Made by a program: the position numbers and the translations under genes
NCBI RefSeq assembly: GCF_004104415.1
Contig: NZ_CP034669.1
Source of the DNA: Corallococcus coralloides
GTDB lineage: Bacteria; Myxococcota; Myxococcia; Myxococcales; Myxococcaceae
Length of the DNA: 64,000 nt
Direction: 5' to 3' (one strand)
Shown: positions 27,636-51,074 of the stretch, piece after piece
Layout: the number at the start of each line of letters is the position of its first letter
Numbering within the stretch: position 1 is the stretch's first letter
The notes under the pieces: generated by a model
Databases searched by the model: none
Told to the model about the DNA's origin: nothing
The model's input: the letters and a program-made list of their open reading frames with translations, nothing else

Positions 27636-28179
27636 GCAGGGTTTGGGCCCACAGGCAAGGTGCGGCGCGGCACCTGTGACACGCTCGCGCCCGCCCGGCT
27701 GCTACGGCTTATTCCAGACTGCCAATTGTTACTGGGTTGCTAACGCAAAGTTACAGGGGCCCCCCTCTTTTCAACGAAACAGTGTCCTGGTTAGCATGCA
27801 CTCCCACTGAATCTGGCGCGGTGAAAACAGCCGCTGCCGGGAGAGTGGGTTGGAGAGCAGCGCTTGCCGGTGACCGTTGACAGTCGATTCGGAGGGGCCG
27901 CCCCGGGTTCGGGTGTGGTGCCCCGGCTTTCCGGCCTGTCACAGCGCTTCGCCCCCGCCCTGCCCGCCTCGCGCGTCCCGCCTTTCCACGCTGAGAACCC
28001 CGCGCGCGTCGCCAATGCGACCTGTGGCGTTGGGCAGCGTTTCCTATCGGGCTGTTGTCCACCCACGGTCCGCCATCCGTAAGGCGCGGCCCGCCCCCCC
28101 GGCGGACCTCTCCTCGTGCAGTCGTCGTCTCTCGCAGTCCCCTCGTCCGGCAGTACATCACCCCCAAGAAGGAAGGCGC

Positions 28180-31100
28180 ATGCGTCTCAGGGAAAAGCTG
28201 TTGACCAGCCTGCTGCTGGTGCCCATCGCGGGTACCAGTGCGTGGGCCAAGGAGCGGTCGAACTACGACGCGTTCCTGGAGCAGCGGGACTCCCGCTCTC
28301 TCGCCGTGGATGCGAACACGGCGGTGTCCCGCGGGCTTCGCATCGAGCAGACCGAGCACCGGCTCGGCGTGCCGACGTTCGCCTGGGCGACGCAGGACGG
28401 CGCGCAGTCCAAGTCCGTCATCCGCAACGGCATGACGGCGGAGGGCGCGGCGCGCGCGCACCTGCAGGCCGTGGCGGACAGCTACCGGCTGACGCGTGAC
28501 GACGTCTCGGGCGCCAACCTGCGCTCGATGCACAACACCGGCAAGGGCGCGATCATCGCGACCTTCAACCAGTCGGTGGGTGGCATCCCCGTCTTCCGCA
28601 ACGAGATCAAGGTCGTCATGGGCCAGGACCTGCGCCTGGTGGCCGTGAGCGGCTACCTGGCCCCGTCCGAGCTGGCGTTCACCGCGCGCAGCAAGGCGCG
28701 CGCCGGCTTCAACCTGGGCGCCGCGGACGCGGTGTCCGGCGCGTTCAAGGACCTGACGGGCTCCGGCACGCAGGCCACCTCGTTCGTCAACACGGGCACG
28801 AAGGGTGACTTCACCTTCTTCGAGCTGGCCCCCTCCTCGAAGTCCGCGCTGCCGCAGGACCTGGCCACCCCGGCCCGCGCCCGGCAGGTGTACTTCATGC
28901 TGGCCGGCAACCTGGAGCCGGCCTGGTACGTGGAAGTGAACGCCGGCCCCAAGGCCGCGCGCTCCAGCCATTACTTCGGCTACGTGGTCTCCGCGGCCAC
29001 CGGCAAGGTCCTCTTCCGCAACGACCTGTCCGCGGACGCGGGCACGGAGTTCACGTACAAGGTCTGGGCGGACCAGGCGGCTCCGTTCATCCCGGAGGAC
29101 GGTCCCCAGGGCAACGACGCGACCCCGCACCCCACGGGTCTGCGCGACGGCTACCAGGCCCCGCTGAACCGCCCGGCGCACGACATCACCCTGGCCAACA
29201 GCCCCTACAGCAAGAACGACCCCTGGCTGCCGGCCAACGCCACGCAGACCACGGGTAACAACGTGGACGCGTACGCGGACCTGAACGAGCCGGACGGCTT
29301 CCAGCCCGGCACGAACGACCTCCGCGCGGAGACGACGAGCGAGAACACCTTCTCGTACGTCTACGACACGTCCAAGAGGCCGGGTTTCAGCCCCGAGCAG
29401 ATCAAGGCCTCGGTGGTGAACCTGTTCTACGTGAACAACTTCCTGCACGACTGGTACTACGACGCCGGCTTCGACGAGGCCGCGGGCAACGCCCAGTCGT
29501 TCAACTTCGGCCGTGGCGGCGTGGAGGGCGACCCCATCCAGGCCCAGGCGCAGGACTACGGCGGCCGCAACAACGCGAACATGAGCACGCCGGCGGACGG
29601 TGCGTCCCCGCGCATGCAGATGTACGTGTTCGACGGCACGCCCGAGCTGTCCGTGACGTCGCCCTCGTCGCTGGCCGCTGTCTACGAGGCCGGCTCCGCG
29701 AGCTACGGCCTGCAGGCGTACGACGTGACGGGTGAGATCCAGATCCCGGAGACCAACAAGGACGGCTGCGCCGCGTTCGCCCCGGGCTACTTCACCGGGA
29801 AGATCGCGCTCATCGACCGCGGGACGTGCAACTTCGTCATCAAGTCGCTCAACGCGCAGAACGCGGGCGCCATCGCCACGGTCATCGCGAACAACTCCGC
29901 CGGCAGCACCATCAACATGGGCGGCAACGGCACGGATGACGCCAAGATCACCACGCCGTCCCTGATGATCACCCTGGACGCGGCCAACGCGTGGAAGGCC
30001 GCGACGGAGCCGGTGTCCGTGAAGTTCCTGCGCGAGCCCAACCAGGACCGCGACGGCACGCTCGACAACGGCATCGTCGCGCACGAGTGGGGTCACTACA
30101 TCAGCAACCGCCTCATCGGTAACGCCGCGGGCCTGAGCAACAACCAGGGCCGCGCGATGGGCGAGGGCTGGGCCGACTTCCACTCCATGCTGATGCAGGT
30201 GCGCGAAGCCGACCGCACCAAGCCGGGCAACGGCAACTGGCAGGGCGTCTACACCAACGCTGGCTACACCGCCAGCGGCGGCAAGAACCAGGGCTACTAC
30301 TACGGCATCCGTCGCCTGCCCTACTCGACGGACATGAGCAAGAACGGCTACACGTTCCGGCACATCGGCAACTTCACCCAGCTGCCCAACGAGCTGGCGG
30401 CGTCGTCCACCGCCAGCAACAGCCAGGTCCACAACAGCGGTGAGGTGTGGGCCACGGCGCTGTGGGAGTGCTACGCGAGCCTGCTGAACGCGCACCCGTT
30501 CCAGGAGGCGCAGGACCGCATGAAGCGGTACATCGTCGCCGCCTACAAGGCGACGCCGAACGCGCCGACCTACACGGAAGCGCGTGACGCGGTGCTGGCC
30601 GTCGCGCTCGCGAGCGATCCGGCGGACTACCAGCGCTTCGTGGCGGGCTTCGCCAAGCGCGGCATGGGCTTCGGCGCCAGGTCGCCGGACCGCGACGCGT
30701 TCGACCACATCGGCGTGACGGAGAGCTTCGCGCAGGGTGGCAACCTGGAGGTCACCAGCATCACGCTGGCGGACACCGCGGCCGGCTGCGACCAGGACGG
30801 CATCCTGGACATCGGCGAGCAGGGTGAGCTGAAGATCACCGTGCGCAACGTGGGCGGCAACGGGCTGAGCGCCTTCACCGGCACCGTCAGCAGCACCAGC
30901 ACCACGGCGACGCTGGAGTTCCCGAACGGCGCCGCGGTCAACGTCCCGGCCCTGTCGCGCGGCGCTTCCGCCACGGTCACCGTGCCCGTCAACGTCACCG
31001 CGGTCTCCGGCTCGCCCGCGCGCGCCGGCATCCGGGTCGCCTTCGATTCCAACGAGATCCCGGCGGCGGCGAAGACGGTGACGTTCGACCCGCGCGTCAA

Positions 31101-33885
31101 CTACGACAACGTCTCCACGACCAGCAACACGGAGACGTTCGAGTCCGGCCTGACCGGGTGGACGGTGTCGCAGAACCTGTCGTCCTCGGGCGACTGGACG
31201 CTGTCCGGCTCGCCGGCCAACCGCTACGCGAATGGCAGGGATCCGGGCACGATCGCGGAGACCACCATCACCAGCCCCTGGCTGTCGGTGGATGACGCGA
31301 CCGACTTCGTGATGAGCTACAACTACCGTCACTCCTTCGAGTTCGACTCCAACGCCTCCTACGACGGCGCGGTGCTCGAGTTCACGGTGGACGGCATCGA
31401 CTGGATCGACCCCTGGGATCTGTACCCGGTGGTGGACGCGGATCCGGGCTACGTGGACTACATCGCCGCGGGCGGCGGCAACCCGCTCGAGGACCGCGCC
31501 GCGATGGCGCAGGTGAGCGCGGGCTTCCCGGGGTTCACGGCCGCGAGCATCAACTTCGGGACCTTCTTCCCCGACCTGGAGCTCAAGAACGTCCGCTTCC
31601 GCTTCCGCATCGGCGGTGACGTGGCGGTCGGCGGGTACGGCCTGGACATCGACAACGTGAAGTTCGAGGGCGCCACGGCGGTGTTCGCGGGCCAGCCGGA
31701 TCAGCCGGCGTCCACGGGCGTGTGCAACGTGCCCCCGGTGGCCAACGCCGGTCCGTCGCGCGTGGGCACGGCGGCGGTCGCGGAGGGTACGCTCGTCAAC
31801 GGCGTCCTCAACCGCGCCACCATCACCCTGAACGGCACGGGCAGCTTCGACCCGGATGCCGCCGCGGGTGACGCGCTCACCTACAGCTGGGCGCAGGTCG
31901 GTGGCGCCACGCCGGTCACGCTGACGGGCGCGGACACCGCGACGCCGAGCTTCGTGGCGGACGTGGACTACTCCGACACCCTCTCCTTCCAGCTCGTCGT
32001 CACCGACGCGGCTGGCAAGGCGAGCGCCCCCAAGACGGTGGACATCCAGGTCCTCAACGTGAACCAGCCCCCGGTGGCCGCGGCCACCGCGCCGGCGACG
32101 GTGGACGAGCGTGACCCCACGCCCGTGACCCTGGACGCCTCCGGCTCCACGGACGCGGACGTGGTTCACGCGAACGCGCTGACGTACGCCTGGGTCCAGA
32201 CGAGCCCCGCGACGCCCAGGCCGACGCTGACCAACGCCACCAGCGCGAGGGCCACGTTCCTGGCTCCGGAAGTGACGGCGGACACGCAGCTGAACTTCAC
32301 GGTCACCGTGACGGACAACAGCGGCGCGAAGTCCACCAAGGCCGTCGCCGTGACGGTGAAGAACGTGGACCGCGCTCCTACGGCCAACGCCGGCGCGGAC
32401 TTCGCGGTCGACACCCGCACGCAGGCGGCCCTCAGCGGCAGCGGCACGGACGAGGATGGCGACGCCGTGACGCTGAGCTGGGAGCAGACCTCCGGCCCGG
32501 CGGTGGTGCTGACGGGCGCGAACACGGCCACGCCGACGTTCGTGTCCCCGGACGTGCCCTTCAACACCGACCTCGTCTTCACGCTGACCGCCACGGCCAA
32601 CGGCCAGTCCGCCACCGACACCGTCACCGTGACGGTGAAGGGCGTGGACCGCGCGCCTACGGCCAACGCCGGCGCGGACATCGCGGCGGATGAGCGCACC
32701 GCGGTGACGCTGACGGGCACGGGCTCGGACGAGGATGGCGACACCCTCGGCTACCAGTGGGAGCAGATCGGTGGCACCGAGGTGCAGCTGACGGGTGCCA
32801 CGACGGCCACGCTGGCCTTCACGGCGCCGGAAGTCACGGCCACCACCACGCTCGTCTTCAAGTTCACGGTGACGGCGAACGGCAAGTCCGCCACGGACAC
32901 GGTCAACGTCACGGTGAACAACGTGGACCGCGCTCCTACGGCCAACGCCGGCGCGGACTTCGAGGCGAGCGCGCGCGCCACGGCGACGCTCCAGGGCTTC
33001 GGCTCGGATCCTGACGGCGACGCGGTGTCGTACGAGTGGGAGCAGACGGGTGGCGAGGCGGTGACGCTGACCGGCGCCAACTCGGCCTCCGCGACCTTCA
33101 CGGCGCCGGACGTGTCGGCCCCCACCGAGCTGACCTTCAAGCTCACGGTGACGGCGAACGGCCAGTCGGCGTCCGACCTGGTCAACGTGACGGTGCGCAA
33201 GTCCAACCGTCACCCGGTGGGCCAGGCTCCGGCCACCATCGACGCGGACGAGGGCAGCAACGTGGAGCTGGACGCTTCCGGCATCACGGATCCGGACGGT
33301 GACGCGCTCACCTACGTCTGGGCCCAGGTCGGTGGCACGACGGTCACGCTCGAAGGCACGGGCACCTCGAAGGTGAAGTTCACCGCGCCGCAGGTCCAGG
33401 CTGACACGGCCGTGGCCTTCAGCCTGACGGTGACGGACTCCGACGGCGCCACCGTTGGCCCGTTCGTCTACACGGTCAACGTGAAGCAGGTGAACCAGGC
33501 GCCGGTCGCCAAGGTCCGGGTCATCTCGGGCGTGCGCGGCGGTGAGCTGGTGAAGATCGACGCCGCGACGTCCACGGATCCGGACAACGAGGCGCTGACC
33601 TACACCTGGGCGCAGACGGGCGGCCCCTCCGTGACGCTGACCGGCGCCAACTCCGCCGAGGCCAGCTTCACCCCGCCGGCCAAGAAGACGCTGGAGACCT
33701 ACACCTTCACCGTGACGGTGAAGGACGCGGCCGGTGCCACCAGCACCGCCGAGATCAAGGTCTCCGTGCCGAAGTCCGACGACGACGGCGGCGGCTGCTC
33801 CTCCACGGGCGGCTCCGCTGGCGGCATGGCGCCGCTGATGGCGCTGTTCGCGGCGATGGCGCTCGCGCGCCGTCGCAAGGCGTAA
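28180..33885 (+). CDS. secreted M36 (fungalysin)-family zinc metalloprotease with PA domain, about 9 PKD/Ig-like tandem repeats and MYXO-CTERM tail
   Basis: RBS AAGAAGGAAGG; signal peptide; HEWGHYISNRL HExxH zinc site plus downstream GEGWADF; PA-domain GKIALIDRGTCNFVIKSLNAQNAGAIA; repeats ANAGADxxxxxxxxxxLxGSGSDxDGDxxxYxWxQ; C-terminus GGGCSSTGGSAGGMAPLMALFAAMALARRRKA. Confidence 0.9.
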   Translation: MRLREKLLTSLLLVPIAGTSAWAKERSNYDAFLEQRDSRSLAVDANTAVSRGLRIEQTEHRLGVPTFAWATQDGAQSKSVIRNGMTAEGAARAHLQAVADSYRLTRDDVSGANLRSMHNTGKGAIIATFNQSVGGIPVFRNEIKVVMGQDLRLVAVSGYLAPSELAFTARSKARAGFNLGAADAVSGAFKDLTGSGTQATSFVNTGTKGDFTFFELAPSSKSALPQDLATPARARQVYFMLAGNLEPAWYVEVNAGPKAARSSHYFGYVVSAATGKVLFRNDLSADAGTEFTYKVWADQAAPFIPEDGPQGNDATPHPTGLRDGYQAPLNRPAHDITLANSPYSKNDPWLPANATQTTGNNVDAYADLNEPDGFQPGTNDLRAETTSENTFSYVYDTSKRPGFSPEQIKASVVNLFYVNNFLHDWYYDAGFDEAAGNAQSFNFGRGGVEGDPIQAQAQDYGGRNNANMSTPADGASPRMQMYVFDGTPELSVTSPSSLAAVYEAGSASYGLQAYDVTGEIQIPETNKDGCAAFAPGYFTGKIALIDRGTCNFVIKSLNAQNAGAIATVIANNSAGSTINMGGNGTDDAKITTPSLMITLDAANAWKAATEPVSVKFLREPNQDRDGTLDNGIVAHEWGHYISNRLIGNAAGLSNNQGRAMGEGWADFHSMLMQVREADRTKPGNGNWQGVYTNAGYTASGGKNQGYYYGIRRLPYSTDMSKNGYTFRHIGNFTQLPNELAASSTASNSQVHNSGEVWATALWECYASLLNAHPFQEAQDRMKRYIVAAYKATPNAPTYTEARDAVLAVALASDPADYQRFVAGFAKRGMGFGARSPDRDAFDHIGVTESFAQGGNLEVTSITLADTAAGCDQDGILDIGEQGELKITVRNVGGNGLSAFTGTVSSTSTTATLEFPNGAAVNVPALSRGASATVTVPVNVTAVSGSPARAGIRVAFDSNEIPAAAKTVTFDPRVNYDNVSTTSNTETFESGLTGWTVSQNLSSSGDWTLSGSPANRYANGRDPGTIAETTITSPWLSVDDATDFVMSYNYRHSFEFDSNASYDGAVLEFTVDGIDWIDPWDLYPVVDADPGYVDYIAAGGGNPLEDRAAMAQVSAGFPGFTAASINFGTFFPDLELKNVRFRFRIGGDVAVGGYGLDIDNVKFEGATAVFAGQPDQPASTGVCNVPPVANAGPSRVGTAAVAEGTLVNGVLNRATITLNGTGSFDPDAAAGDALTYSWAQVGGATPVTLTGADTATPSFVADVDYSDTLSFQLVVTDAAGKASAPKTVDIQVLNVNQPPVAAATAPATVDERDPTPVTLDASGSTDADVVHANALTYAWVQTSPATPRPTLTNATSARATFLAPEVTADTQLNFTVTVTDNSGAKSTKAVAVTVKNVDRAPTANAGADFAVDTRTQAALSGSGTDEDGDAVTLSWEQTSGPAVVLTGANTATPTFVSPDVPFNTDLVFTLTATANGQSATDTVTVTVKGVDRAPTANAGADIAADERTAVTLTGTGSDEDGDTLGYQWEQIGGTEVQLTGATTATLAFTAPEVTATTTLVFKFTVTANGKSATDTVNVTVNNVDRAPTANAGADFEASARATATLQGFGSDPDGDAVSYEWEQTGGEAVTLTGANSASATFTAPDVSAPTELTFKLTVTANGQSASDLVNVTVRKSNRHPVGQAPATIDADEGSNVELDASGITDPDGDALTYVWAQVGGTTVTLEGTGTSKVKFTAPQVQADTAVAFSLTVTDSDGATVGPFVYTVNVKQVNQAPVAKVRVISGVRGGELVKIDAATSTDPDNEALTYTWAQTGGPSVTLTGANSAEASFTPPAKKTLETYTFTVTVKDAAGATSTAEIKVSVPKSDDDGGGCSSTGGSAGGMAPLMALFAAMALARRRKA
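31720..33780 (+). repeat. tandem about 270-nt PKD-like coding repeats with near-identical nucleotide blocks
   Basis: gtggaccgcgc(t/g)cctacggccaacgccggcgcggac recurs at about 32375, 32647, 32923; similar blocks throughout. Confidence 0.8.
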
Positions 33886-42687: not shown

Positions 42688-43176
42688 TCATTCAAAGACA
42701 TGAATCAGGACCGCCACCTGACGCTCCCGGTCCTCCACCTCGCAACTCAACATCTGCGAGACGCCCGCCGGGAGCCGGATTTCGATCCCTTTCGCGCGAG
42801 ACGCATCTTCCACACTGTCAACGATGACGTAGGGTTCGGCTTGCACCCGGAAAGACACTCGTTCGACCACGGAGTGAAGACTCGAATCAAATTCGAGCGC
42901 AGTCTGGAGTAGGAGCACCTCGTCAGGAGCATATCTCCACCTGACAACCATCGGCCCCTCCGGCCGCGAGATGACGCAAGTGCGAAGGGGTTCATCAGCC
43001 AGGACCACTACGTCGCCCCAGTCCCGCTTGATAACCGCCGACGACGTATAAATCGAGCAAGCCTCATCATAGTCCTTCGTCTTGACGCCTTCCCACATCT
43101 TCGTCTTGGAAATGGGCAGCATGACGAATGGACCGCCCAATGACTCGATCCACTCACTTTGCTCGAACTTCATCAC
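42688..43176 (-). CDS. orphan immunity-like protein (second gene of low-GC cassette downstream of RHS toxin)
   Basis: 162 aa; GC about 53%; RBS GGAGTG; no signal peptide; position within Rhs-associated immunity cassette. Confidence 0.5.
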   Translation of the reverse strand: MMKFEQSEWIESLGGPFVMLPISKTKMWEGVKTKDYDEACSIYTSSAVIKRDWGDVVVLADEPLRTCVISRPEGPMVVRWRYAPDEVLLLQTALEFDSSLHSVVERVSFRVQAEPYVIVDSVEDASRAKGIEIRLPAGVSQMLSCEVEDRERQVAVLIHVFE

Positions 43177-43307
43177 TCAGTCACTCCTGCCCAACTCCGC
43201 CGAGGAACTGCCAGTCGCCGTCGTCGCGCGACACCAATAGAGCCCGATGCGTCCTCTGGAACACATGCGAACAGACGCAAGCCGGAGACTCAGCCTCACC
43301 CATGGAT

Positions 43308-43757
43308 TCAGTCCTGTCTCAGTATTGGCTCTTCGTAATCCGCGATGTCTCCAGACGCGACCGCTTCTTCCAGGTATCGCCGAACCTCCTTGAGCGATGC
43401 ATTTTCCGGCACGCTGAGGGCAATCAGTTGATAGGCCGGCAACGACTCGCTCGTGCATCCCAGCCGCTCCAGCGCGGACCTGATGTCAGCAGAATCGACA
43501 TCCTCGGGAACGACAATTCGAATCAACGAATTGTTCGACCTCCCTACGGTGGAGCGATACCAGAGCTGGCCATCCTCTTCAGCGACCTCAATCTCGTCAC
43601 CCAAGGTTGCGTCTCGAACGAAAAAGGGCGTGTTATCCAGGACAAATCGCCCGTTCCCGGATGAACGAGCCCAAAGGCTCTCCACGCCGACTGGAGGATA
43701 CCCATCCTCATCCTGCTCGAGGCGAAAGAAGATTTTCCTGATTTCACTCACGGCCAT
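43308..43757 (-). CDS. cognate immunity protein candidate for the RHS HNH-nuclease toxin
   Basis: 149 aa acidic protein; its ATG overlaps the toxin stop (ccATGgccgTGA = PWP* / MAV); low GC. Confidence 0.6.
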   Translation of the reverse strand: MAVSEIRKIFFRLEQDEDGYPPVGVESLWARSSGNGRFVLDNTPFFVRDATLGDEIEVAEEDGQLWYRSTVGRSNNSLIRIVVPEDVDSADIRSALERLGCTSESLPAYQLIALSVPENASLKEVRRYLEEAVASGDIADYEEPILRQD

Positions 43758-46700
43758 GGATATTTATCACCCTTCTCTCGATTACAATCCCGACACAGGA
43801 CCTGGCCATTCTCTGGCGACCCTTTTCCTCCCTTGGATTCAGGAATCACATGGTCAACTTGGGTTTCATTTCCAGGAGGTCTCACGCCTGACCGGCTCTG
43901 CTGTGAGGGTACTGTTGTAGTGCCGCAGTTTTCGCAAACGGTATCGCCTCCATTTCTGGCCCGATTCTCTTCGACGACTATATCTCTGCCTTTTCGCGTA
44001 AAAGACTTGCCGCTACGGTCCTTTGCTGACGAAAAGACTGCCAGCCCCTTCGTTGCATCAGCCACTCCCTCCGCCCCGACGACCAGCGAACCTGCAACCG
44101 CGGCGGCAGAAACAGCTGCGACAGGCACCCCCACTGCGGCGCCGACTCCTGTGAAGCTGATGGCGCCCCCTATCCCTTCGCCGGCAACTCCACCCACGAA
44201 CATGCCAGCGGCCGCGTAGAGCTCCATCAGGCTGACGGCCCCCATTCCGACACCATAACCACGGTAGAAGTCCTGGGTCTGATCCTCGGGAATCGGCAGC
44301 AGATGCCCTGCCGGGAGCAATCCCGCCATGACGCCCATCAGACCGCCCCCCAGCCCCTGGGTCAGCCGCGTCAGCAACACGTTGACCTCGTCGGGATGAT
44401 AGACGGTCGTTTCGAGCAACGTGATGGACTCGGTGATCTCACCACCCTTCGAATAATCCGTCGACCGGAGGTGACTCTGCTCCAGAGAGGTATAGGACTG
44501 ATCGCCGAAGCGGATCTCCATCGTAACGGGCTCGTAGTTCGGCGAGCGCTCGAAGAGGCCGGGCCCATAGCCTGATGCCGGGCTCCTGCTTACCGGCTCG
44601 GTCCAGTTACTGAAATCGCGGCCAATCTCCGCTCCGTACCAACTGTCGTAGTAGTAGATCAGCTCCATCGACATGAAGCCGGACGGGTCCGTGTAGCGCA
44701 GCGGGTTGTTCAACACATAGCTGTACCGGTTGAACGACTGCCCCCACAAAGGCGCCTGCACCACGGGATCCGGGCTCAGGAAGCGGCCCAGCCTTGGGTC
44801 GTAGATGCGCCCCCGCATGTTCACGAGCTCGAACTCCGAGTCCTGCTCGTGGCCCGTGAAGGAGTGCCGGACCTCGTGCGAGGCCCCCTGCCACTTCAGC
44901 GACAGGTCCAGCGGATGACGCCGCGCTCCGAACGGGTCGTACTTCATCCGGCCCACGACGAGGCCGGCATCGTCAGTCACCGACTCCGTGGAGCCCAGGT
45001 GATCCGAGTGCATGTAGCGCCACTGCTTCTTGATCGCCACGCCCGAAGCAGCCTCGACCCGCCAGGTCACCTCGGCAATCCCCCGCTCCGCCGCGCTCAC
45101 ATGGAATGAATGCGTGACGGCGCCCCCCGGCTCACGGCGCTCCTCGTAGAGACCACCGACATACGTGGTCATCGTCCCATCCGAGTGCCGCTTCACGGTC
45201 CGGGCGTTGTTCGCCGAGTACCGGTACGACACGCTCTGCTGACCGTCCATGATGCGGGAGGGAAGATGGAAGCCCGTGAACTCCACCGTCCGCCCCGGCG
45301 CGGACGTCTGGTTGCCGCTGGCGTCGTAGCCATAGCTCCCCGCCTGAGACCCCGTCAGCGCATGCGGCCCTGCCGGGCCGGCGCCATAGGTGAAAGTCTC
45401 GGACTCGCTCGCCCCCAGGGTGGAGGTCCAGCCCAGCAGGTTGCCCAGATCATCATACGAATAGGATTGGATGGTGTTGCGGCAGTTCTGGACGATGTTC
45501 CATTCGGTCAGCCGGTCCAATCCGTCATAGTGGAAGTCCTCGGTCGTCCTCGCGAGCCGATCATGCCGACTTCTGACATTTCCGTTCGGCTGGTACTCGT
45601 AGGCCAGCTGCTGGAGCGGAACCGTTCCCTTCTGGCTGTCAATGAAGCGCAGCCGGCCCATCGAATCGTAGAGCCGCTGTGTCACCACGCCATTGCCCAG
45701 GCTTTCGGACGTGAGCTGCCCCAGGGCGTTACGCTCCAACACCTTCCACTTCTCACTCAGCGTCTCTAGGTCCCGGACGCTCCGGAGATAGCCTTGAGAG
45801 GTGTATTCATAACCCAGGCGCAATCGCGTCCCCGCGACAGCAGGGTACTCCAGACTCAGTGACCGTCCGTAGGCGTCGTAGCTTCGGTCAATGGCATACG
45901 CGCGCCCCTCCACCAGCCATTGCTCCTGCGTGAGCCTGCCGAGGGTGTCATAGCCATAGGCCACGGCGATGTCGTCCGTGGTCGTCGCCGGATCTCCTTC
46001 ACGTACGCTGCCCATGAGCAGTCCAGGCATACTGGGTCCCTGGGCGGGGGTGTCCCACGTGAAGCGGTCGACTCCATCCCGGCTGCTGGTCACCGTGACC
46101 GGCCGGCCCAGCACATCCCGGACATAGGTCGTCACGACCTGTGACGCATCCTCGGTCCGATCAATCTCTCCCAGGGCCGTGTAGCGGGTGGTGGTCAGGC
46201 CCGAGTCCGGTGTTCGCAGCGAGGTCCGACGCCCGAGCCGGTCGTAGCCCAGGAGCGTTTCGTTCCCCTGGGGATCCAGCACCCGCTGGAGCTGTCCAAA
46301 GGGCCCATACTGATACGTCGACTCCAACCACGGCGCGGTGAACGCCGTCCGCTCCATGCTCTTGATGACCCGGCCATTCACGTCGTTCAAGAAGCGGCGG
46401 GAATTGCCGTTCTCATCGGTGGTGGTGACCTGGAACCCCTCGCGATAGCCGCGGTACCAGGCGCTCGACACCGACCCATCCGGATGGGTCGTCTTGAGCA
46501 GGCGGTTGAGCGGATCATACTGGTAGGCCGTCACCATGCCGGTGGCGCCCCCCTGCGGATCCGGATCGGTCACCTCCACCACCCGTCCCAGGGCATCGAA
46601 CTTCCTCGTGCTGATGGCCTGGGTGCCATTGAACGAGAGCCGGCTCGATCTTACGGACCGCCCCAGGCGGTCATAGTCGACGGTGACGGTCTGCCCTCCC

Positions 46701-49700
46701 GCGACGGACGTCGTCACACGGGTCGTGTAGGCCGTCCCGGCGATGAGCTGCGTGTAATGAACCTCCGTGTCCGACTGATCGGGCGCATCCTCTTTTCGCA
46801 GCCTGCCAAACCCGTCGTATTGCCAGCGCGTCTCGACCCCGCGCTCGTCACGGACTGCGGCCAGCACGCCCAGGCCTCGGTGGTACGCGAATTCCGTGAC
46901 ATGCCCGGCCGCATTGGTGATGGAGGCAGGAAGCCCCCGGTCAAAGGAGTCGTAGGTGATTTGGGTCACCCGGGGAGTCAGGATTCCCGCTCCGCTTCGC
47001 GTCACCCGCGAAGCAAGTCCGTCCCGGGTACGGCCGTAGGTCGTCGTCTGTTCCAGGTTCGGATCGCCTGGTTCGGAGGTCTCGCTCAGGAGGAAACCTG
47101 TCCAGGACTGATACGTCAGGGATTTGCGGCGGGTGACAGTCTGGCCATTGACCGTGCTGGACTCCGTCACCAGGGTCGGCAAACCCACGAGCCAACTTGA
47201 GGGGGAGTTGGAATACTCCGCATGCCATGCGACCTGGTCGCCCCCCACGGTGCTCTGCGTCTTGTCCGTGAGGTTGCCGTAGGTGTCGTCATAGGTCCAT
47301 GAAGTCTGCGTGGTCCGCACGAACGCGGAGGCTGCATTCGGACCAGCCTCGGTAGCGTAGTTCCTCTCAATCTCCGTCCCGTTCACCGGGAAGATGGAGA
47401 GCACCTTCGTGTACGAGACCGTCCCAGGCCGCAGCACCGACCGGTAATGGATCTCCCGCTCGCGCTCCGTGGTCCAGCCATCGAACTGGAGCCGGACACG
47501 CTCACGAATGGGTGTCGCGGCATAGGGATAGAAGGTGTCGACCCGCGTCGTGACGTCGTACTCGGTCCGGGTCTCCGTGCCGGCCTGCACGTCCTGCACC
47601 GTCATCGCCTTGAACCCCAGCCAGCCGCGGCCGGTGACGTCGAACCGTCCGTCCTCGTAGAAGTAGCGCTTGACTCGCACCGGATGCCCCTCCCCCGCGT
47701 CCGTCTGGCTTTCGGCCACCACCCAGTGTCCCTGTCGGGAACAGGTGTTGGGGTACCCGCAGTCCGTTCCGCGAGCATGAACCGTGGTGTCGGAGATGGG
47801 CTTATAGGTGAAGGTGGTGCCGGAGTTCATGCTGTCCTTCACCCCCTTGAGCAGCCCGGGGCGCTGACCATTCTGGCGGTAGACAACCAGCTGGCCATTC
47901 ACGGGCTGGACGAAGTCCGCCAGTCCGTCTCCATTCATGTCCAGCACCTGGGAGAGCTGATTGCGTCGCGTCCCGGCCTCGTCCGACACGGTGATGGCCG
48001 CGAGTTCCTGGGGATCGAAGGAGGTGCCGTTCGACAACAGCAGGACGAATTTCGTCCGGTCCGAGCCCTTCTTGTCCATCAACAGCAGGTCCTGACGCCC
48101 GTCATGGTTGTAGTCGAGGACGCGGACGCCATTGTCATAGTCCCAGGAGCTGAACTTCGCGAAGGCGGGAAGTACCTGGGCCACTGGCGCGGCGAAGCCG
48201 TTGCCAGTGTTCATCATGATTTCAATGTCTCCCCCCGCCACTGGACTCAGGATGGCATCCGGCAGTCCATCCCCATTGATATCGGCGAAGAGGTAGACCT
48301 TCTCGTCGACGGTCGGCAGCAGCAGGGTCGTCTCCGTCTTGACGTAGACGCCATTGCGCTTCTCCAGCGCCCAGAGGCGATTCGACGCGCTGAGGACGAA
48401 TCCGGAGCTGTCCATCACCTTCCGCTCCATCAACAGGCTGCTCCGGGGCAAGCCATCCAGGTTGACCGCGTACTGGATGAAATCGTGCCACTCGCTCGCA
48501 CCGAGAGTGATGGGCTGGAAGGCCCACAGGGTTCCCTGGATGATGGGCCGGAAGGACAACTGCGGATGCCCATTGGGGCCATCCATGGTGATCTGGACAG
48601 GGTTCATCAGGCCGCTTCCGTCCAGATCCGCCAGGAACATCCTCCCGGAGGGTCCCGTGCCCGAGAGTGAGAACCCGTTGCTGCCCCCCACGTAGTTCAT
48701 CATCGTGCGGGGCGGCGTCACCTGACAGCCATCCTTCTTGACGATGCTGACGTCCAGCAGGCCATCCAGGTTGAAGTCGAACCAGCGGCCGTCTTCGCCG
48801 TCAGAGCTGTACCAGCAGGTTTCCGGAAGCACCGTGTTCACGGGCGCGGCGAAGGCGGTGCCGGTGCTCGAGCTGGTCCTCCACTTGTAGAAATACTGGG
48901 TGGACGCAGGGGCCCGGTAGATCAGGTCATCCAGTCCATCCCCATTGACGTCACCCGGCTGGAGGGTCGCGAACTCAGGAATGATGGACGCATCCGTGAT
49001 CTGGGTGTTCACGGTCGTGAAGCTGTTCGCGGGCTGGGTCCATTCGAAGGTCATGGGGCGCTTGCACTTGCCCCCCCCGTCGCATTCCTTGAGCGAGGAG
49101 AGCAGGCTCCTGTCACTGCCTGCCTCCTGGGCATAGGTGAACTCATAGGTCCGCAGCGTGACCTCCTGGCCAACTTCATCGGGCCCGCGCATCTGCAAGG
49201 ATTTGAGCCGTTGGCTGGACTTGATCTTGAAGCCGGCGACATAGGCCGTCCGGATGTCCTTCGCGGGCCGGGTGTCGTACGAAAAATTCACATGGCGCAG
49301 GGAGGCCTGCGCGGCATCCAAACTGCTTGTGTACGTAATGTGGCTCAACACCTGTTCATAGCTGTTGTCCGACGCGTCATACACGATCGGGCCGTAATGG
49401 AAGGCCACCACATTGTCAACGCGGTCGATGATGCTTGTCAGCCCCCAGGAGTACCGGCTCACCGCGGTGTCACGGGTGGTGGCATAGTCCTTTTCATATT
49501 GGGGCCGGACGGCAACGCGGTTTCCCTGAAAGACTGCGTTCGCCTCGATATTGCCGTAGTTGAGGATGCGGCCATCCTTGGCAAGGACGGTGAAAGACTT
49601 AGGACCGTTGGCGTCGGAGCTGTGCGACACGATCTTGGAGAACGTGTCCGTTTCCGTCCGGTACTCCGTGTTCGACGCGCCGTACTGACCATTCACCGCG

Positions 49701-50140
49701 ATCAACTTCTGCCCGTCCAGACAGAACGAGTCCGCCTGGGTGAAGGTCACGGGCATGGACACGCCATCCGCTGCCATGTTCTTCGAACAGCGGGTGATTT
49801 GAGAAAGGCCAGACAAGCTCCAGCCCACCCCCAGGAGCCCGTTCGGCAGGTTGCTGCGATAGCTGAGGGACAAGGACGGTTGGAGGCCCGCCCGCCCCGG
49901 CGGGACCCAGAGGGGAATTGAATAGGTGGCGGAACCGTCTGACCCCACGCCGGCCTGTCCCTGAAGGTTGCCTACCGCGGCGCCGTCCGGCCCTACCTCC
50001 GTGGGCAGCACGGTGCCCGCGGGCACCGACAGCGATTGGCCCTCGGTTCGGAGCAGTTCGCCATCCCGAGGCGAGCCTGGCTCCGTGCGGCCACAGGCCA
50101 TCACCAACGTGAACAATGTCAGGAATACAATGCGATTCAT
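43748..50140 (-). CDS. RHS/YD-repeat polymorphic toxin lipoprotein with SpvB-like N-terminal domain, FG-GAP/VCBS-type repeats, RHS core and C-terminal HNH nuclease domain
   Basis: Lipoprotein signal MNRIVFLTLFTLVMAC; DxNGDGLxD repeats; many YD repeats; RHS core ending YVLNNPLRYTDPSGF (PxxxxDPxGL cleavage motif); C-terminal CENCG...VDHVIPESKGG...NGQVLCRDCNREKG HNH motif. Confidence 0.9.
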   Translation of the reverse strand: MNRIVFLTLFTLVMACGRTEPGSPRDGELLRTEGQSLSVPAGTVLPTEVGPDGAAVGNLQGQAGVGSDGSATYSIPLWVPPGRAGLQPSLSLSYRSNLPNGLLGVGWSLSGLSQITRCSKNMAADGVSMPVTFTQADSFCLDGQKLIAVNGQYGASNTEYRTETDTFSKIVSHSSDANGPKSFTVLAKDGRILNYGNIEANAVFQGNRVAVRPQYEKDYATTRDTAVSRYSWGLTSIIDRVDNVVAFHYGPIVYDASDNSYEQVLSHITYTSSLDAAQASLRHVNFSYDTRPAKDIRTAYVAGFKIKSSQRLKSLQMRGPDEVGQEVTLRTYEFTYAQEAGSDRSLLSSLKECDGGGKCKRPMTFEWTQPANSFTTVNTQITDASIIPEFATLQPGDVNGDGLDDLIYRAPASTQYFYKWRTSSSTGTAFAAPVNTVLPETCWYSSDGEDGRWFDFNLDGLLDVSIVKKDGCQVTPPRTMMNYVGGSNGFSLSGTGPSGRMFLADLDGSGLMNPVQITMDGPNGHPQLSFRPIIQGTLWAFQPITLGASEWHDFIQYAVNLDGLPRSSLLMERKVMDSSGFVLSASNRLWALEKRNGVYVKTETTLLLPTVDEKVYLFADINGDGLPDAILSPVAGGDIEIMMNTGNGFAAPVAQVLPAFAKFSSWDYDNGVRVLDYNHDGRQDLLLMDKKGSDRTKFVLLLSNGTSFDPQELAAITVSDEAGTRRNQLSQVLDMNGDGLADFVQPVNGQLVVYRQNGQRPGLLKGVKDSMNSGTTFTYKPISDTTVHARGTDCGYPNTCSRQGHWVVAESQTDAGEGHPVRVKRYFYEDGRFDVTGRGWLGFKAMTVQDVQAGTETRTEYDVTTRVDTFYPYAATPIRERVRLQFDGWTTEREREIHYRSVLRPGTVSYTKVLSIFPVNGTEIERNYATEAGPNAASAFVRTTQTSWTYDDTYGNLTDKTQSTVGGDQVAWHAEYSNSPSSWLVGLPTLVTESSTVNGQTVTRRKSLTYQSWTGFLLSETSEPGDPNLEQTTTYGRTRDGLASRVTRSGAGILTPRVTQITYDSFDRGLPASITNAAGHVTEFAYHRGLGVLAAVRDERGVETRWQYDGFGRLRKEDAPDQSDTEVHYTQLIAGTAYTTRVTTSVAGGQTVTVDYDRLGRSVRSSRLSFNGTQAISTRKFDALGRVVEVTDPDPQGGATGMVTAYQYDPLNRLLKTTHPDGSVSSAWYRGYREGFQVTTTDENGNSRRFLNDVNGRVIKSMERTAFTAPWLESTYQYGPFGQLQRVLDPQGNETLLGYDRLGRRTSLRTPDSGLTTTRYTALGEIDRTEDASQVVTTYVRDVLGRPVTVTSSRDGVDRFTWDTPAQGPSMPGLLMGSVREGDPATTTDDIAVAYGYDTLGRLTQEQWLVEGRAYAIDRSYDAYGRSLSLEYPAVAGTRLRLGYEYTSQGYLRSVRDLETLSEKWKVLERNALGQLTSESLGNGVVTQRLYDSMGRLRFIDSQKGTVPLQQLAYEYQPNGNVRSRHDRLARTTEDFHYDGLDRLTEWNIVQNCRNTIQSYSYDDLGNLLGWTSTLGASESETFTYGAGPAGPHALTGSQAGSYGYDASGNQTSAPGRTVEFTGFHLPSRIMDGQQSVSYRYSANNARTVKRHSDGTMTTYVGGLYEERREPGGAVTHSFHVSAAERGIAEVTWRVEAASGVAIKKQWRYMHSDHLGSTESVTDDAGLVVGRMKYDPFGARRHPLDLSLKWQGASHEVRHSFTGHEQDSEFELVNMRGRIYDPRLGRFLSPDPVVQAPLWGQSFNRYSYVLNNPLRYTDPSGFMSMELIYYYDSWYGAEIGRDFSNWTEPVSRSPASGYGPGLFERSPNYEPVTMEIRFGDQSYTSLEQSHLRSTDYSKGGEITESITLLETTVYHPDEVNVLLTRLTQGLGGGLMGVMAGLLPAGHLLPIPEDQTQDFYRGYGVGMGAVSLMELYAAAGMFVGGVAGEGIGGAISFTGVGAAVGVPVAAVSAAAVAGSLVVGAEGVADATKGLAVFSSAKDRSGKSFTRKGRDIVVEENRARNGGDTVCENCGTTTVPSQQSRSGVRPPGNETQVDHVIPESKGGKGSPENGQVLCRDCNREKGDKYPWP

Positions 50141-50223
50141 TGATTCGCCTGAAGAAGCAGCTTGAAAAGGAAACGCATGCGGGTCACGCATGGAAGACAT
50201 TCGCACGGTACGCTCGGGCTCGT

Positions 50224-50778
50224 TCACGACTCGGAGCCACCGGGGTTGCAGGAGATTCCCGGGCACAGGCGGTTCGTGTTGCACGAACCATCACAGCACT
50301 TGTACTGCCCCTGCGGGCACGCGGGCGGAGGCGGCGTGACACACTGGCCATTCGTGCACGTATCACCCTGGGAGCAGGTGCCACACTGAAGGGTTCCCCC
50401 GCAGCCATCCGAGGCCGGGCCACACGTCACCCCGAGGTCGGCGCAAGTCATTGGGGCACATTGGCACACATTGTCCGCGCAAGCGATTCCGGAACCGCAG
50501 GTGCCACAGTTCAACCACGCGCCACACCCATCCGGCATGGCCCCACAGTTCTTGCTCAACCCCTGGCAGGTGAATGGCGCACAGCTGCAGGCGAGGTCAC
50601 TCGTGCGGCAGACGTCGTCTTCGTCCACCCACCCGTCGCAATCATCATCCCGGCCATTGCAGACCTCCGCCGCGGGAGTACAAGCCGCGTCCGCTGTCGA
50701 AGGCACTACGAGCCCGACCGCCAACCACGCCACAGTCAGGAGCCACACCCAGCGAAGCGGCTTCGTGAGAATCGTCAT
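50224..50778 (-). CDS. secreted cysteine-rich repeat protein with MopE-like CNGxDDDCDGxVDE metal-binding motif
   Basis: Signal peptide MTILTKPLRWVWLLTVAWLAVGLVVPSTADA; about 36 Cys in 184 aa in CxxxTCxxLGxxCGxxxDGCGxxLxCGTC repeats. Confidence 0.7.
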   Translation of the reverse strand: MTILTKPLRWVWLLTVAWLAVGLVVPSTADAACTPAAEVCNGRDDDCDGWVDEDDVCRTSDLACSCAPFTCQGLSKNCGAMPDGCGAWLNCGTCGSGIACADNVCQCAPMTCADLGVTCGPASDGCGGTLQCGTCSQGDTCTNGQCVTPPPPACPQGQYKCCDGSCNTNRLCPGISCNPGGSES

Positions 50779-51074
50779 GTCAGTGCTGAATCCAAAAGGG
50801 GGCGCGAGTCCGCGATGAGTGGCACCGCCAACCGCGAGGAGTCGCGCTTCTACATCATGCCCCCAAAGAAAATCCAGACATGGGCCGGAAGTACGCGCGG
50901 ACCCATGCCTGGATGCCTGCTTTCACGATCTTCAGGAGTTGTCTGGATTCAACCCGTGCCAGCAGTTGCGTGGCCAATGCGTGGCGCATCGCCTGCGGGC
51001 ACACCTGACATGGTCGGGGAAGCCTGGGCCTCCCCCGAGCCACGCAGGATTCGCGGCGCGCCGCGAGCCCTGCC

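Follow-up and report, generated by a model that had tools for sequence, protein, structure and literature searches.

The Tc (toxin complex) proteins and the Rhs polymorphic toxins are the described systems closest to the locus analysed here. In the former, the TccC3 cargo is an ADP-ribosyltransferase acting on eukaryotic cells. The latter are listed in reviews as one of three kin-discrimination systems of myxobacteria, a system known to be independent of type VI secretion (the T6SS) and unresolved in its delivery (PMC10433427). A 'TcdB/TcaC-type' class of polymorphic toxins includes delta-proteobacteria, and the survey describing it lists Tox-HNH, NGO1392-like HNH tips and Imm21 (PMC3482391). 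A locus of this general kind is found in a window of 64,000 nucleotides (nt) from Corallococcus coralloides (contig NZ_CP034669.1; "the window" is this whole stretch, to which unlabelled coordinates refer). Its central gene, called rhs below, codes for a predicted lipoprotein of 2130 amino acids (aa), the C-terminal tip of which, a predicted HNH nuclease, is non-homologous to that of a syntenic ortholog. We hold it about 75% probable that this is a chromosomal polymorphic-toxin locus directed against related bacteria, in kin discrimination or competition, in which a lipoprotein cocoon, translocation by a cargo segment termed module B, an HNH DNase and a DUF4265 immunity protein are combined.

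Exchange of the toxin tip and its immunity gene

The rhs gene and the two genes downstream of it consist of the following parts (aa positions are those of the Rhs protein; L001 and L002 are the ortholog loci introduced below):

43748..50140 (-), rhs gene, predicted lipoprotein Rhs polymorphic toxin of the TcB/TcC-fusion type (open reading frame (ORF), translation, Pfam and NCBIfam domains, orthologs)
50093..50140 (-), predicted type II signal peptide and lipobox (aa 1-16, LVMAC; sequence)
47543..49963 (-), TcB-like front half (aa ~60-866) with an SpvB-N-like domain, an FG-GAP beta-propeller at aa ~390-700 and a TcdB middle/N region at 715-866 (PF03534, PF01839, PF13517, PF12256 and AlphaFold)
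44942..47542 (-), RHS/YD-repeat shell (aa ~867-1733; PF05593, E 2.4e-29; TIGR01643, E 2.6e-20)
44675..44941 (-), Rhs-associated core (aa 1734-1822), ending in ...NNPLRYTDPSGF (TIGR03696)
44366..44674 (-), module A (aa 1823-1925, MSMELIYYYDSWYG...), ~103 residues, conserved in L001 and L002
44051..44365 (-), module B (aa 1926-2030), ~105 residues, a Gly/Ala-rich hydrophobic 'glycine-zipper' (LLPxP..DFYxGY..GVGAAVGVPVAAVS; hydropathy, GxxxG-type runs, conservation)
43748..44050 (-), swapped toxin tip, a predicted zinc-finger HNH nuclease (aa 2031-2130; PF01844, model, composition)
43308..43757 (-), DUF4265 gene, 149 aa, predicted cognate immunity protein (PF14085, E 2.8e-27)
42688..43176 (-), Imm21 gene, 162 aa, second immunity-family gene without adjacent toxin (PF15589, E 5e-14)

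A genome scan found two orthologs of rhs, one in Corallococcus interemptor AB047A (L001, 84% aa identity) and one in C. carmarthensis (L002, 65%), the contig of which stops inside the C-terminal region. Nucleotide identity between the window and L001 is 94.5% on the upstream side (59382-51007), 93.8% on the downstream side (42624-34000) and 85.7% in rhs, and BLAST gave no match to L001 for 44252-42624. At finer scale, the core motif (44790-44641) is 97-100% identical, modules A and B (44640-44050) are ~55-65% identical, and from ~44040 to 42640 no identity is left. Homology between the orthologous proteins ends at ...KGLAVFSS|AKDRSGKSF, around aa 2030, and the HNH tip of the window then begins. 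At the same site, C. interemptor carries a tip of 116 aa and, after it, an ORF of 118 aa; both are unrelated to the window sequences, and neither has a Pfam family. Because this syntenic ortholog has both a non-homologous tip and a non-homologous immunity gene, the comparison demonstrates that the predicted toxin tip is polymorphic at a syntenic locus between flanks that are ~94% identical. A preliminary description of the window had proposed a classic C-terminal toxin-module displacement and had named beforehand the comparison of ortholog C-termini as its test. The displacement is borne out by the differing tip of C. interemptor. Its junction is not the classic one, since the break in composition and homology lies about 160-210 aa downstream of the DPxG[LF] core motif, inside or after module B. 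Because identity changes in three steps, the comparison suggests two nested boundaries, an older one near the classical DPxG[LF] site and a younger one within or just past module B that is marked by a drop in GC content at third codon positions (GC3).

Base composition along the locus is as follows:

flanks, GC 0.70-0.71, GC3 0.91-0.97
rhs body, GC 0.63 (0.634), GC3 about 0.84
tip (43748-44050), GC 0.52 (0.521), GC3 0.40-0.47 (aa 2036-2125), about 0.46 for the tip
DUF4265 gene, GC 0.56, GC3 0.63
Imm21 gene, GC 0.57, GC3 0.69

The low GC content first noticed at the end of rhs and in the downstream cassette is thus real (0.538 for 43748-44080 and 0.571 for the immunity cassette, against the flanks). 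The maximum-likelihood change point of GC3 falls after aa ~1982, with 0.84 before and 0.51 after it (log-likelihood ratio 30.5), and the last high-GC3 block ends near aa 2005 (window ~44194-44125), inside module B. By composition, the tip, the 3' portion of module B and both immunity-family genes (DUF4265, Imm21) are foreign. It could be argued that the drop comes from amino-acid composition or from a relaxation of codon selection at the gene end, with unrelated small genes downstream, and indeed GC at the first and second codon positions varies along rhs too. We give this account next to no weight: the drop is specific to third positions (from 0.84 to 0.51), it occurs within about 50 codons of the point where homology to the ortholog is lost altogether, with 94% identity kept in both flanks, and the downstream ORFs match immunity-associated families (Imm21 by name, DUF4265 by its link to the HNH clade elsewhere). 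A compositional artefact is ruled out by the ortholog comparison.

The HNH fold claimed earlier for the last codons was recovered in several ways. PF01844 is matched at aa 2069-2126 (E 1e-10 on the full protein, 1e-12 on the tip alone), and the motif comprises a first CxxC (C2069/C2072), D2096-H2097, N2111, a second CxxC (C2116/C2119) and N2120; the catalytic and zinc residues are invariant across 15 homologs. In the AlphaFold model of the cargo, the tip reaches a predicted local distance difference test score (pLDDT) of 85-96. Structurally closest to it are the Gme HNH nicking endonuclease (4H9D) and McrA (6GHC), and Foldseek on the cargo model gave only weak HNH matches. Homologs of the tip, 40-66% identical, end Rhs, PT-TG, PT-HINT and PT-VENN scaffolds or stand alone as short proteins. 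From these motifs, the tip is taken as an intact nuclease of the zinc-finger HNH (beta-beta-alpha-Me) type with predicted activity; its placement in the NGO1392-like clade is by motif description.

The DUF4265 gene starts inside the last codons of rhs, with an ATG in a 10-nt overlap (CCATGGCCGTGA). It lies directly 3' of the HNH tip in all eight homologous tips examined, five on the contigs of tip homologs and three on metagenomic ones (L031, L084 and L090). Among 80 metagenomic loci, an HNH sequence is upstream of DUF4265 in these three, plus one truncated locus, and the three are the metagenomic DUF4265 loci with any toxin upstream. Of the remaining loci, two were looked at. In L011 the gene is an orphan. 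On another metagenome contig (L016, 1221..5294) it stands in a polyimmunity array of SUKH-1, a gene of unknown family, Imm9, DUF4265 and Imm11, without a toxin gene; the coding sequence of this contig looks low in GC, and the neighbouring entries in the match list are human-gut assemblies. In dozens of other contigs (L018-L083), DUF4265 has much the same identity (38-39%); many of these contigs bear the label human gut metagenome. Because it follows all the HNH tips examined and because it occurs in a polyimmunity array, DUF4265 is read as an immunity family, and here as the predicted cognate partner of the HNH tip. The literature searched barely mentions the family, which can now be regarded as the immunity partner for a widespread clade of HNH toxins. 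Its profile matches PDB 5UEB, the only solved DUF4265 structure, which is that of an uncharacterised protein of Neisseria gonorrhoeae. NGO1392, the name-giver of the CxxC/DH/CxxC HNH toxin clade, is presumably a gonococcal locus tag as well.

The second gene of the cassette, Imm21, is absent from L001. The polymorphic-toxin survey associates Imm21 with NGO1392-like HNH toxins of the motif CxxC, DH, CxxC (Zhang et al. 2012, PMC3482391), and because of this tie the gene may provide extra immunity against related HNH tips or may be a relic of an earlier cassette. A remnant of a displaced toxin was looked for in the interval 43177-43307, between the DUF4265 and Imm21 genes; the two small ORFs in it have no Pfam match. 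PADLOC gave no match on the immunity genes.

The predicted lipoprotein cocoon and its cargo

The rhs frame is open over 43748..50284 (-), and the ATG at 50140 gives 2130 aa plus stop. The protein begins with MNRIVFLTLFTLVMAC|GRTEPG, where the lipobox Cys is residue 16. The reading as a lipoprotein, already given in the preliminary description, gains from the conservation of this Cys in four homologs: rhs of the window, C. interemptor (VLVAC|S), C. carmarthensis (LLGAC|S) and Myxococcus sp. CA039A (protein P0037, ALGSC|G). At positions +2 and +7 after the Cys, the residues are G/G in the window, S/G in L001 and S/S in L002. The outer-membrane sorting rule used for SitA asks for no Lys at +2 and no Ala at +7 (PMC5562445), and by this rule outer-membrane sorting is predicted. 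The first 53 residues form a low-confidence linker in the AlphaFold model. A lipobox on a Tc-like cocoon is an unusual feature. The frame is also open for 48 codons 5' of the signal-peptide Met (50141..50284 (-)). The first ~17 codons of this stretch (QHEPxVPGNxLQPxW) are conserved in L001 (9941..10000), where an in-frame ATG precedes them, so that either the start lies further upstream in some strains or the stretch is a conserved 5' leader or promoter region.

The front half is of the TcB kind. Pfam places SpvB (PF03534) at aa 66-160, FG-GAP/FG-GAP_3 repeats at aa 393-414 and 620-686, and TcdB_toxin_midN (PF12256) at aa 715-866; the three DxNGDGLxD motifs at aa 397, 620 and 734 are the repeats of this type noted earlier. 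The AlphaFold model of aa 1-1000, built from a 38-sequence alignment, has a pLDDT of 81 and a predicted template modelling (TM) score of 0.85. Its best 13 PDB matches are all TcB (TcdB2, TcdB1, YenB), at E values between 1e-30 and 1e-35 and TM-scores of 0.60-0.65. Because the model matches TcB structures, the rhs product is a single-chain cocoon of the TcB-TcC type behind a lipoprotein signal peptide, and its original classification as an Rhs polymorphic toxin with an SpvB-like N-terminus stands on both the domain and the fold matches. A word-index protein search found relatives of aa 1-1000 at 24-40% identity, and missed the Corallococcus orthologs; at this level of identity, the TcB-like front architecture appears to be widespread in environmental bacteria.

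The same similarity could mean that the protein is the BC component of a Tc (ABC) toxin, docking through its beta-propeller on a TcA pentamer encoded elsewhere and injecting eukaryotic or prey cells. The fold matches to TcdB2, TcdB1 and YenB include the propeller (E ~1e-35), SpvB and TcdB_toxin_midN are found by Pfam, and the 308-aa cargo is about as large as the hypervariable region of Tc toxins. Even so, we regard such a role as very unlikely. TcA families gave no match among the window ORFs scanned against Pfam (a subset of the ORFs), and neither the called genes at loci L008-L010 nor the ORFs looked at next to rhs in L001 and L002 include a TcA-like gene. The lipobox would tether the protein to a membrane. 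A coupled immunity gene and a DNA nuclease tip that is common to Rhs, PT-TG, PT-HINT and PT-VENN scaffolds point to bacterial targets.

The shell of YD repeats follows. NCBIfam also finds YD_repeat_2x in the protein. The repeats had been put at dozens; a loose YDxxGR regular expression gives 14 matches, about a dozen of them inside the shell (aa 1108-1562). By sequence, the shell matches Rhs structures in PDB, namely the cocoons 8h8a and 8qja, plus Tse15 and Tse5. Since 8qja, Tse15 and Tse5 are T6SS Rhs structures, one could think of a T6SS-delivered effector with vgrG, PAAR and chaperone genes elsewhere. This has a very small probability in our view: the protein starts with a Sec/lipoprotein signal and not with a PAAR, prePAAR or VgrG-binding region, its N-terminal half matches TcB whereas T6SS Rhs structures reach a TM-score of about 0.15 against the aa 1-1000 model, and PAAR, VgrG and T6SS families are without a match among the same scanned ORFs, in agreement with the first reading of the window. 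It has also been shown that myxobacterial Rhs antagonism persists in T6SS mutants (PMC10433427). With the Sec signal and no PAAR or VgrG among the scanned ORFs, a T6SS effector is effectively excluded.

The shell is closed by the Rhs-associated core, for which TIGR03696 scores 70.6 bits on aa 1734-1821 (cutoff 32.5; positions 1-75 of 76 covered). The autoproteolysis motif YVLNNPLRYTDPSGF, with which the core had been said to end, is present, DPSGF being aa 1818-1822. This core end, of the PxxxxDPxG[LF] type, is invariant across the three orthologs, and the core has both of its Asp-Pro motifs, SPDP and TDPSGF. The site of autoproteolysis is predicted at F1822|M1823.

The cargo after DPSGF|M is 308 aa long and is made up of three parts, module A, module B and the 100-aa HNH tip. 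The C-terminal module had been given as ~110 codons; this fits the HNH tip, which is only the last third of the cargo. The 308-aa model is confident for HNH only, and no fold is proposed for the modules. Modules A and B are kept at about 50-60% aa identity among the three orthologs (about 50% for module A), and a Pfam search gave no match for either. Module A is confined to the Myxococcaceae Rhs family in a whole-library HMMER search, its named carriers being Corallococcus, Myxococcus sp. CA039A and Citreicoccus. Module B has the consensus GLLPAxxLLPxPExxxxDFYxGYG...TGxGAxVGxPxxAVS...KGxAVF in the ortholog alignment and contains [GAS]xxx[GAS] runs in three to four hydrophobic stretches, of which the one at aa 1998-2023 is strongest (Kyte-Doolittle up to 2.1).

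Against 1.84 billion representative proteins, HMMER found eight relatives of modules A/B overall. The named ones are the C. carmarthensis ortholog, the 2181-aa SpvB-Rhs lipoprotein of Myxococcus sp. CA039A (P0037), a 501-aa orphan fragment of Citreicoccus inhibens (P0038) and an Archangium violaceum Rhs protein (P0039) with module B directly after DPSGQ; the remaining ones are short metagenomic proteins. The tips found after module B are HNH, a PF00545 ribonuclease (P0040), LHH (P0041), Ntox24 (P0042) and four unassigned ones (L001; P0036/P0037; P0038; P0039). Pfam gave no family for the tips of L001, P0037, P0038 and P0039 or for their downstream ORFs. At least eight different predicted toxin tips thus follow module B in relatives. 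Because the orthologs have module B in common yet differ in their immunity genes, module B probably needs no immunity of its own and is probably not the toxin. In Tde1, a glycine zipper, which is a GxxxG-rich segment, is required for passage of the DNase across the inner membrane (PMC10240207), and by analogy module B is proposed as a candidate membrane-translocation module. We also infer that its conserved GVGAxVGVP segment provides homology for tip exchange, as a recombination handle.

The Citreicoccus orphan (L010, 8001..9901 on contig JAHNZT010000057) runs from the end of the shell through the core and both modules to a new tip, with a 128-aa ORF after it. Its neighbours are a serine recombinase gene, a DUF2924 gene and an integrase fragment. 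This locus looks like a mobile reservoir of cargo/immunity cassettes for the module A/B Rhs family.

Proposed action, delivery and neighbourhood

In the polymorphic-toxin reading preferred here, the Rhs protein would leave the cytoplasm through Sec, receive its lipid at Cys16 and be sorted to the outer membrane. The aspartyl protease of the core would cut F1822|M1823, and the unfolded cargo of ~32 kDa would stay inside the shell. After transfer from cell to cell, presumably by outer-membrane exchange (TraAB), module B would insert in the inner membrane of the recipient and take the HNH domain into the cytoplasm, where it would cut DNA. In the producer, DUF4265, translationally coupled to the toxin, would neutralise it. 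New tips would be gained by homologous recombination within the GVGAxVGVP segment. Outer-membrane exchange is considered the most likely route of transfer because outer-membrane lipoproteins are its known cargo, as has been described (PMC5562445), and it is at the same time the weakest link of the scheme.

Part of the weighing of routes concerns a gene upstream:

50224..50778 (-), Cys-rich secreted protein, 184 aa, with a predicted type I signal peptide and a MopE-type CNGxDDDCDGxVDE motif, candidate accessory partner (translation)

This gene lies 83 nt upstream of rhs on the same strand. Its match to PF11617 is weak (E 2.5e-4, below cutoff). Orthologs occur in L001 and L002 (84% and 67% aa identity), and its nucleotide identity to L001, 82%, is like that of rhs and unlike that of the 94% flanks. 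A Cys-rich gene with the MopE motif is also directly upstream of the rhs relative of Myxococcus sp. CA039A (L008), the genomic surroundings of which are unrelated, so that the arrangement is seen in four loci (window, L001, L002, L008); the window protein is 27% identical to the L008 one, largely through the repeats. The association of this gene with rhs is suggestive, and MopE-type motifs may be common enough in myxobacteria for chance adjacency.

The Cys-rich protein could be a surface or receptor-binding accessory, and being a conserved secreted partner it would suit a different route, in which the same toxin is displayed at the cell surface and delivered by contact, as in contact-dependent inhibition (CDI) or by WapA, or travels on outer-membrane vesicles, without TraAB exchange. 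A review of myxobacterial Rhs proteins suggests that Rhs4 and Rhs5 are displayed on the cell surface and delivered in a CDI-like way (PMC10433427), and no Rhs family is listed in the SitA literature. Pfam, on the other hand, detected no surface-export or receptor-binding domain in the Rhs protein, and a lipobox leads by default to the periplasmic face of the outer membrane. We treat the surface route as possible, if short of an even chance. A more elaborate version of the exchange route is rather unlikely: the Tc/Rhs cocoon would be a lipoprotein cargo of outer-membrane exchange, as an Rhs-encapsulated counterpart of SitA, modules A and B would carry the nuclease from the recipient outer membrane to the cytoplasm, module B would double as recombination handle, and the Cys-rich protein would replace TcA as the opener or partner of the propeller.

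Several points weigh against the preferred polymorphic-toxin reading. In Tc toxins, the propeller to which the TcB-like one corresponds is the part that docks on TcA, and a TcA gene may lie elsewhere in the genome. Modules A and B have low pLDDT (30-40) in the cargo model, and their proposed roles come from composition and conservation. The eight tips are a small sample, from eight relatives overall. A module B profile found no matches in a word index of 5.8 billion proteins, where Gly/Ala-rich words probably swamped the candidate list. When metagenomes were queried with DUF4265 for a donor of the cassette, the best relative was 50% identical and no near-identical cassette was found, and Imm21 was in none of the loci examined. 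Toxicity, cleavage, lipidation, localisation and transfer are all predicted from sequence or model. For the transfer step, the exchange of a cocoon as large as 230 kDa would have to be supposed. The known toxins of outer-membrane exchange, SitA, have N-terminal escort domains of ~375 aa and are not described as Rhs (PMC8546572).

The order of the neighbourhood is dprA-topA-...-trmFO-...-[xerC]-Cys-rich gene-rhs-immunity-DUF1801-hslV-hslU, with DUF1801, hslV and hslU downstream of the immunity genes. Between the gene of a 773-aa membrane protein and the Cys-rich gene, a XerC-type tyrosine recombinase of 300 aa (TIGR02224, 326 bits) is intact in L001 (8373..9275) and L002 (7993..8895). In the window, xerC (50855..51043 (-)) is a remnant that consists of an ATGTC start and a ~45-nt stretch coding for AMRHALATQLL; two internal deletions appear to have removed ~850 bp. 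With the xerC remnant upstream, the rhs island therefore sits between xerC and hslVU. Elsewhere in the window, an 846-aa NACHT-domain (STAND NTPase) protein is encoded at 9135..11675 (+) with GC 0.52 and GC3 0.52, against 0.68 GC for the genome. This gene is clearly foreign DNA, and PADLOC gave no match on the protein. A 2003-aa secreted protein (27874..33885 (+)) has an M36 fungalysin metallopeptidase, a PA domain and at least seven PKD/Ig-like domains; as a large extracellular protease it may bear on predation, and it is unrelated to the rhs finding.

Comparison with described systems

Three points may matter beyond this genome. The conserved lipobox, predicting outer-membrane residence, makes the rhs locus a testable handle on the delivery of myxobacterial Rhs toxins. 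In the module A/B Rhs family, the unit of exchange is the last ~100-150 residues, past module B, and not everything after DPxGL. Module B is a candidate membrane-translocation device that is common to other scaffolds.

With the Tc BC cocoons (Photorhabdus TcdB2-TccC3, PDB 4O9X/6H6E; Yersinia YenB-YenC, 4IGL), the Rhs protein has in common an SpvB-like N-domain, an FG-GAP propeller, a TcdB-mid region and an RHS shell closed by the Rhs core, as well as a cargo of roughly 30 kDa after the core motif; by fold, the match extends over the first 1000 aa. Unlike them, it is one polypeptide chain with a lipobox, no TcA gene turned up in its surroundings, and its cargo is a predicted antibacterial HNH with coupled immunity genes. 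The 'TcdB/TcaC-type' toxins have a signal peptide, SpvB, an integrin-like propeller, RHS and Tox-HNH, among others, in the same order (Zhang et al. 2012, PMC3482391), whereas the lipobox, modules A/B, the shifted swap junction, the DUF4265 partner and the Cys-rich gene are without mention in the accessible portion of that survey (PMC3482391).

Rhs4 and Rhs5 of Myxococcus xanthus are likewise large, signal-peptide-bearing, T6SS-independent Rhs toxins of the Myxococcaceae (PMC10433427). As compared by description, they differ in being about 4000 aa long and located on Mx-alpha prophages, against 2130 aa in a conserved housekeeping neighbourhood (dprA-topA-trmFO ... hslVU). SitA resembles the Rhs protein in its lipobox with outer-membrane sorting residues and in a constant delivery part followed by a modular C-terminal nuclease and then an immunity gene; an upstream gene for a type I signal-peptide protein is also found, the order being sitB-sitA-sitI (PMC5562445, PMC8546572). 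In SitA, however, the N-terminal escort domains are of ~375 aa and an Rhs cocoon is not described, whereas the constant 'delivery' modules of the Rhs protein come after the Rhs core. None of the SitA families, for which six escort domains are defined, is described as having an SpvB/TcB-like N-terminus of this kind.

In CdiA-CT and Tde1, too, a constant membrane-entry part precedes the variable nuclease in the released fragment, with a GxxxG-rich segment (PMC10240207). Their scaffolds and secretion systems (type V and VI, respectively) are different, and they have no sequence relationship to module B. Taken together, these comparisons support a known kind of system with variant features, namely a Tc-like cocoon with the anchor of a lipoprotein, a cargo in three parts, a swap junction shifted downstream and a DUF4265 partner. 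The advance is an incremental one within a well-known class of systems.

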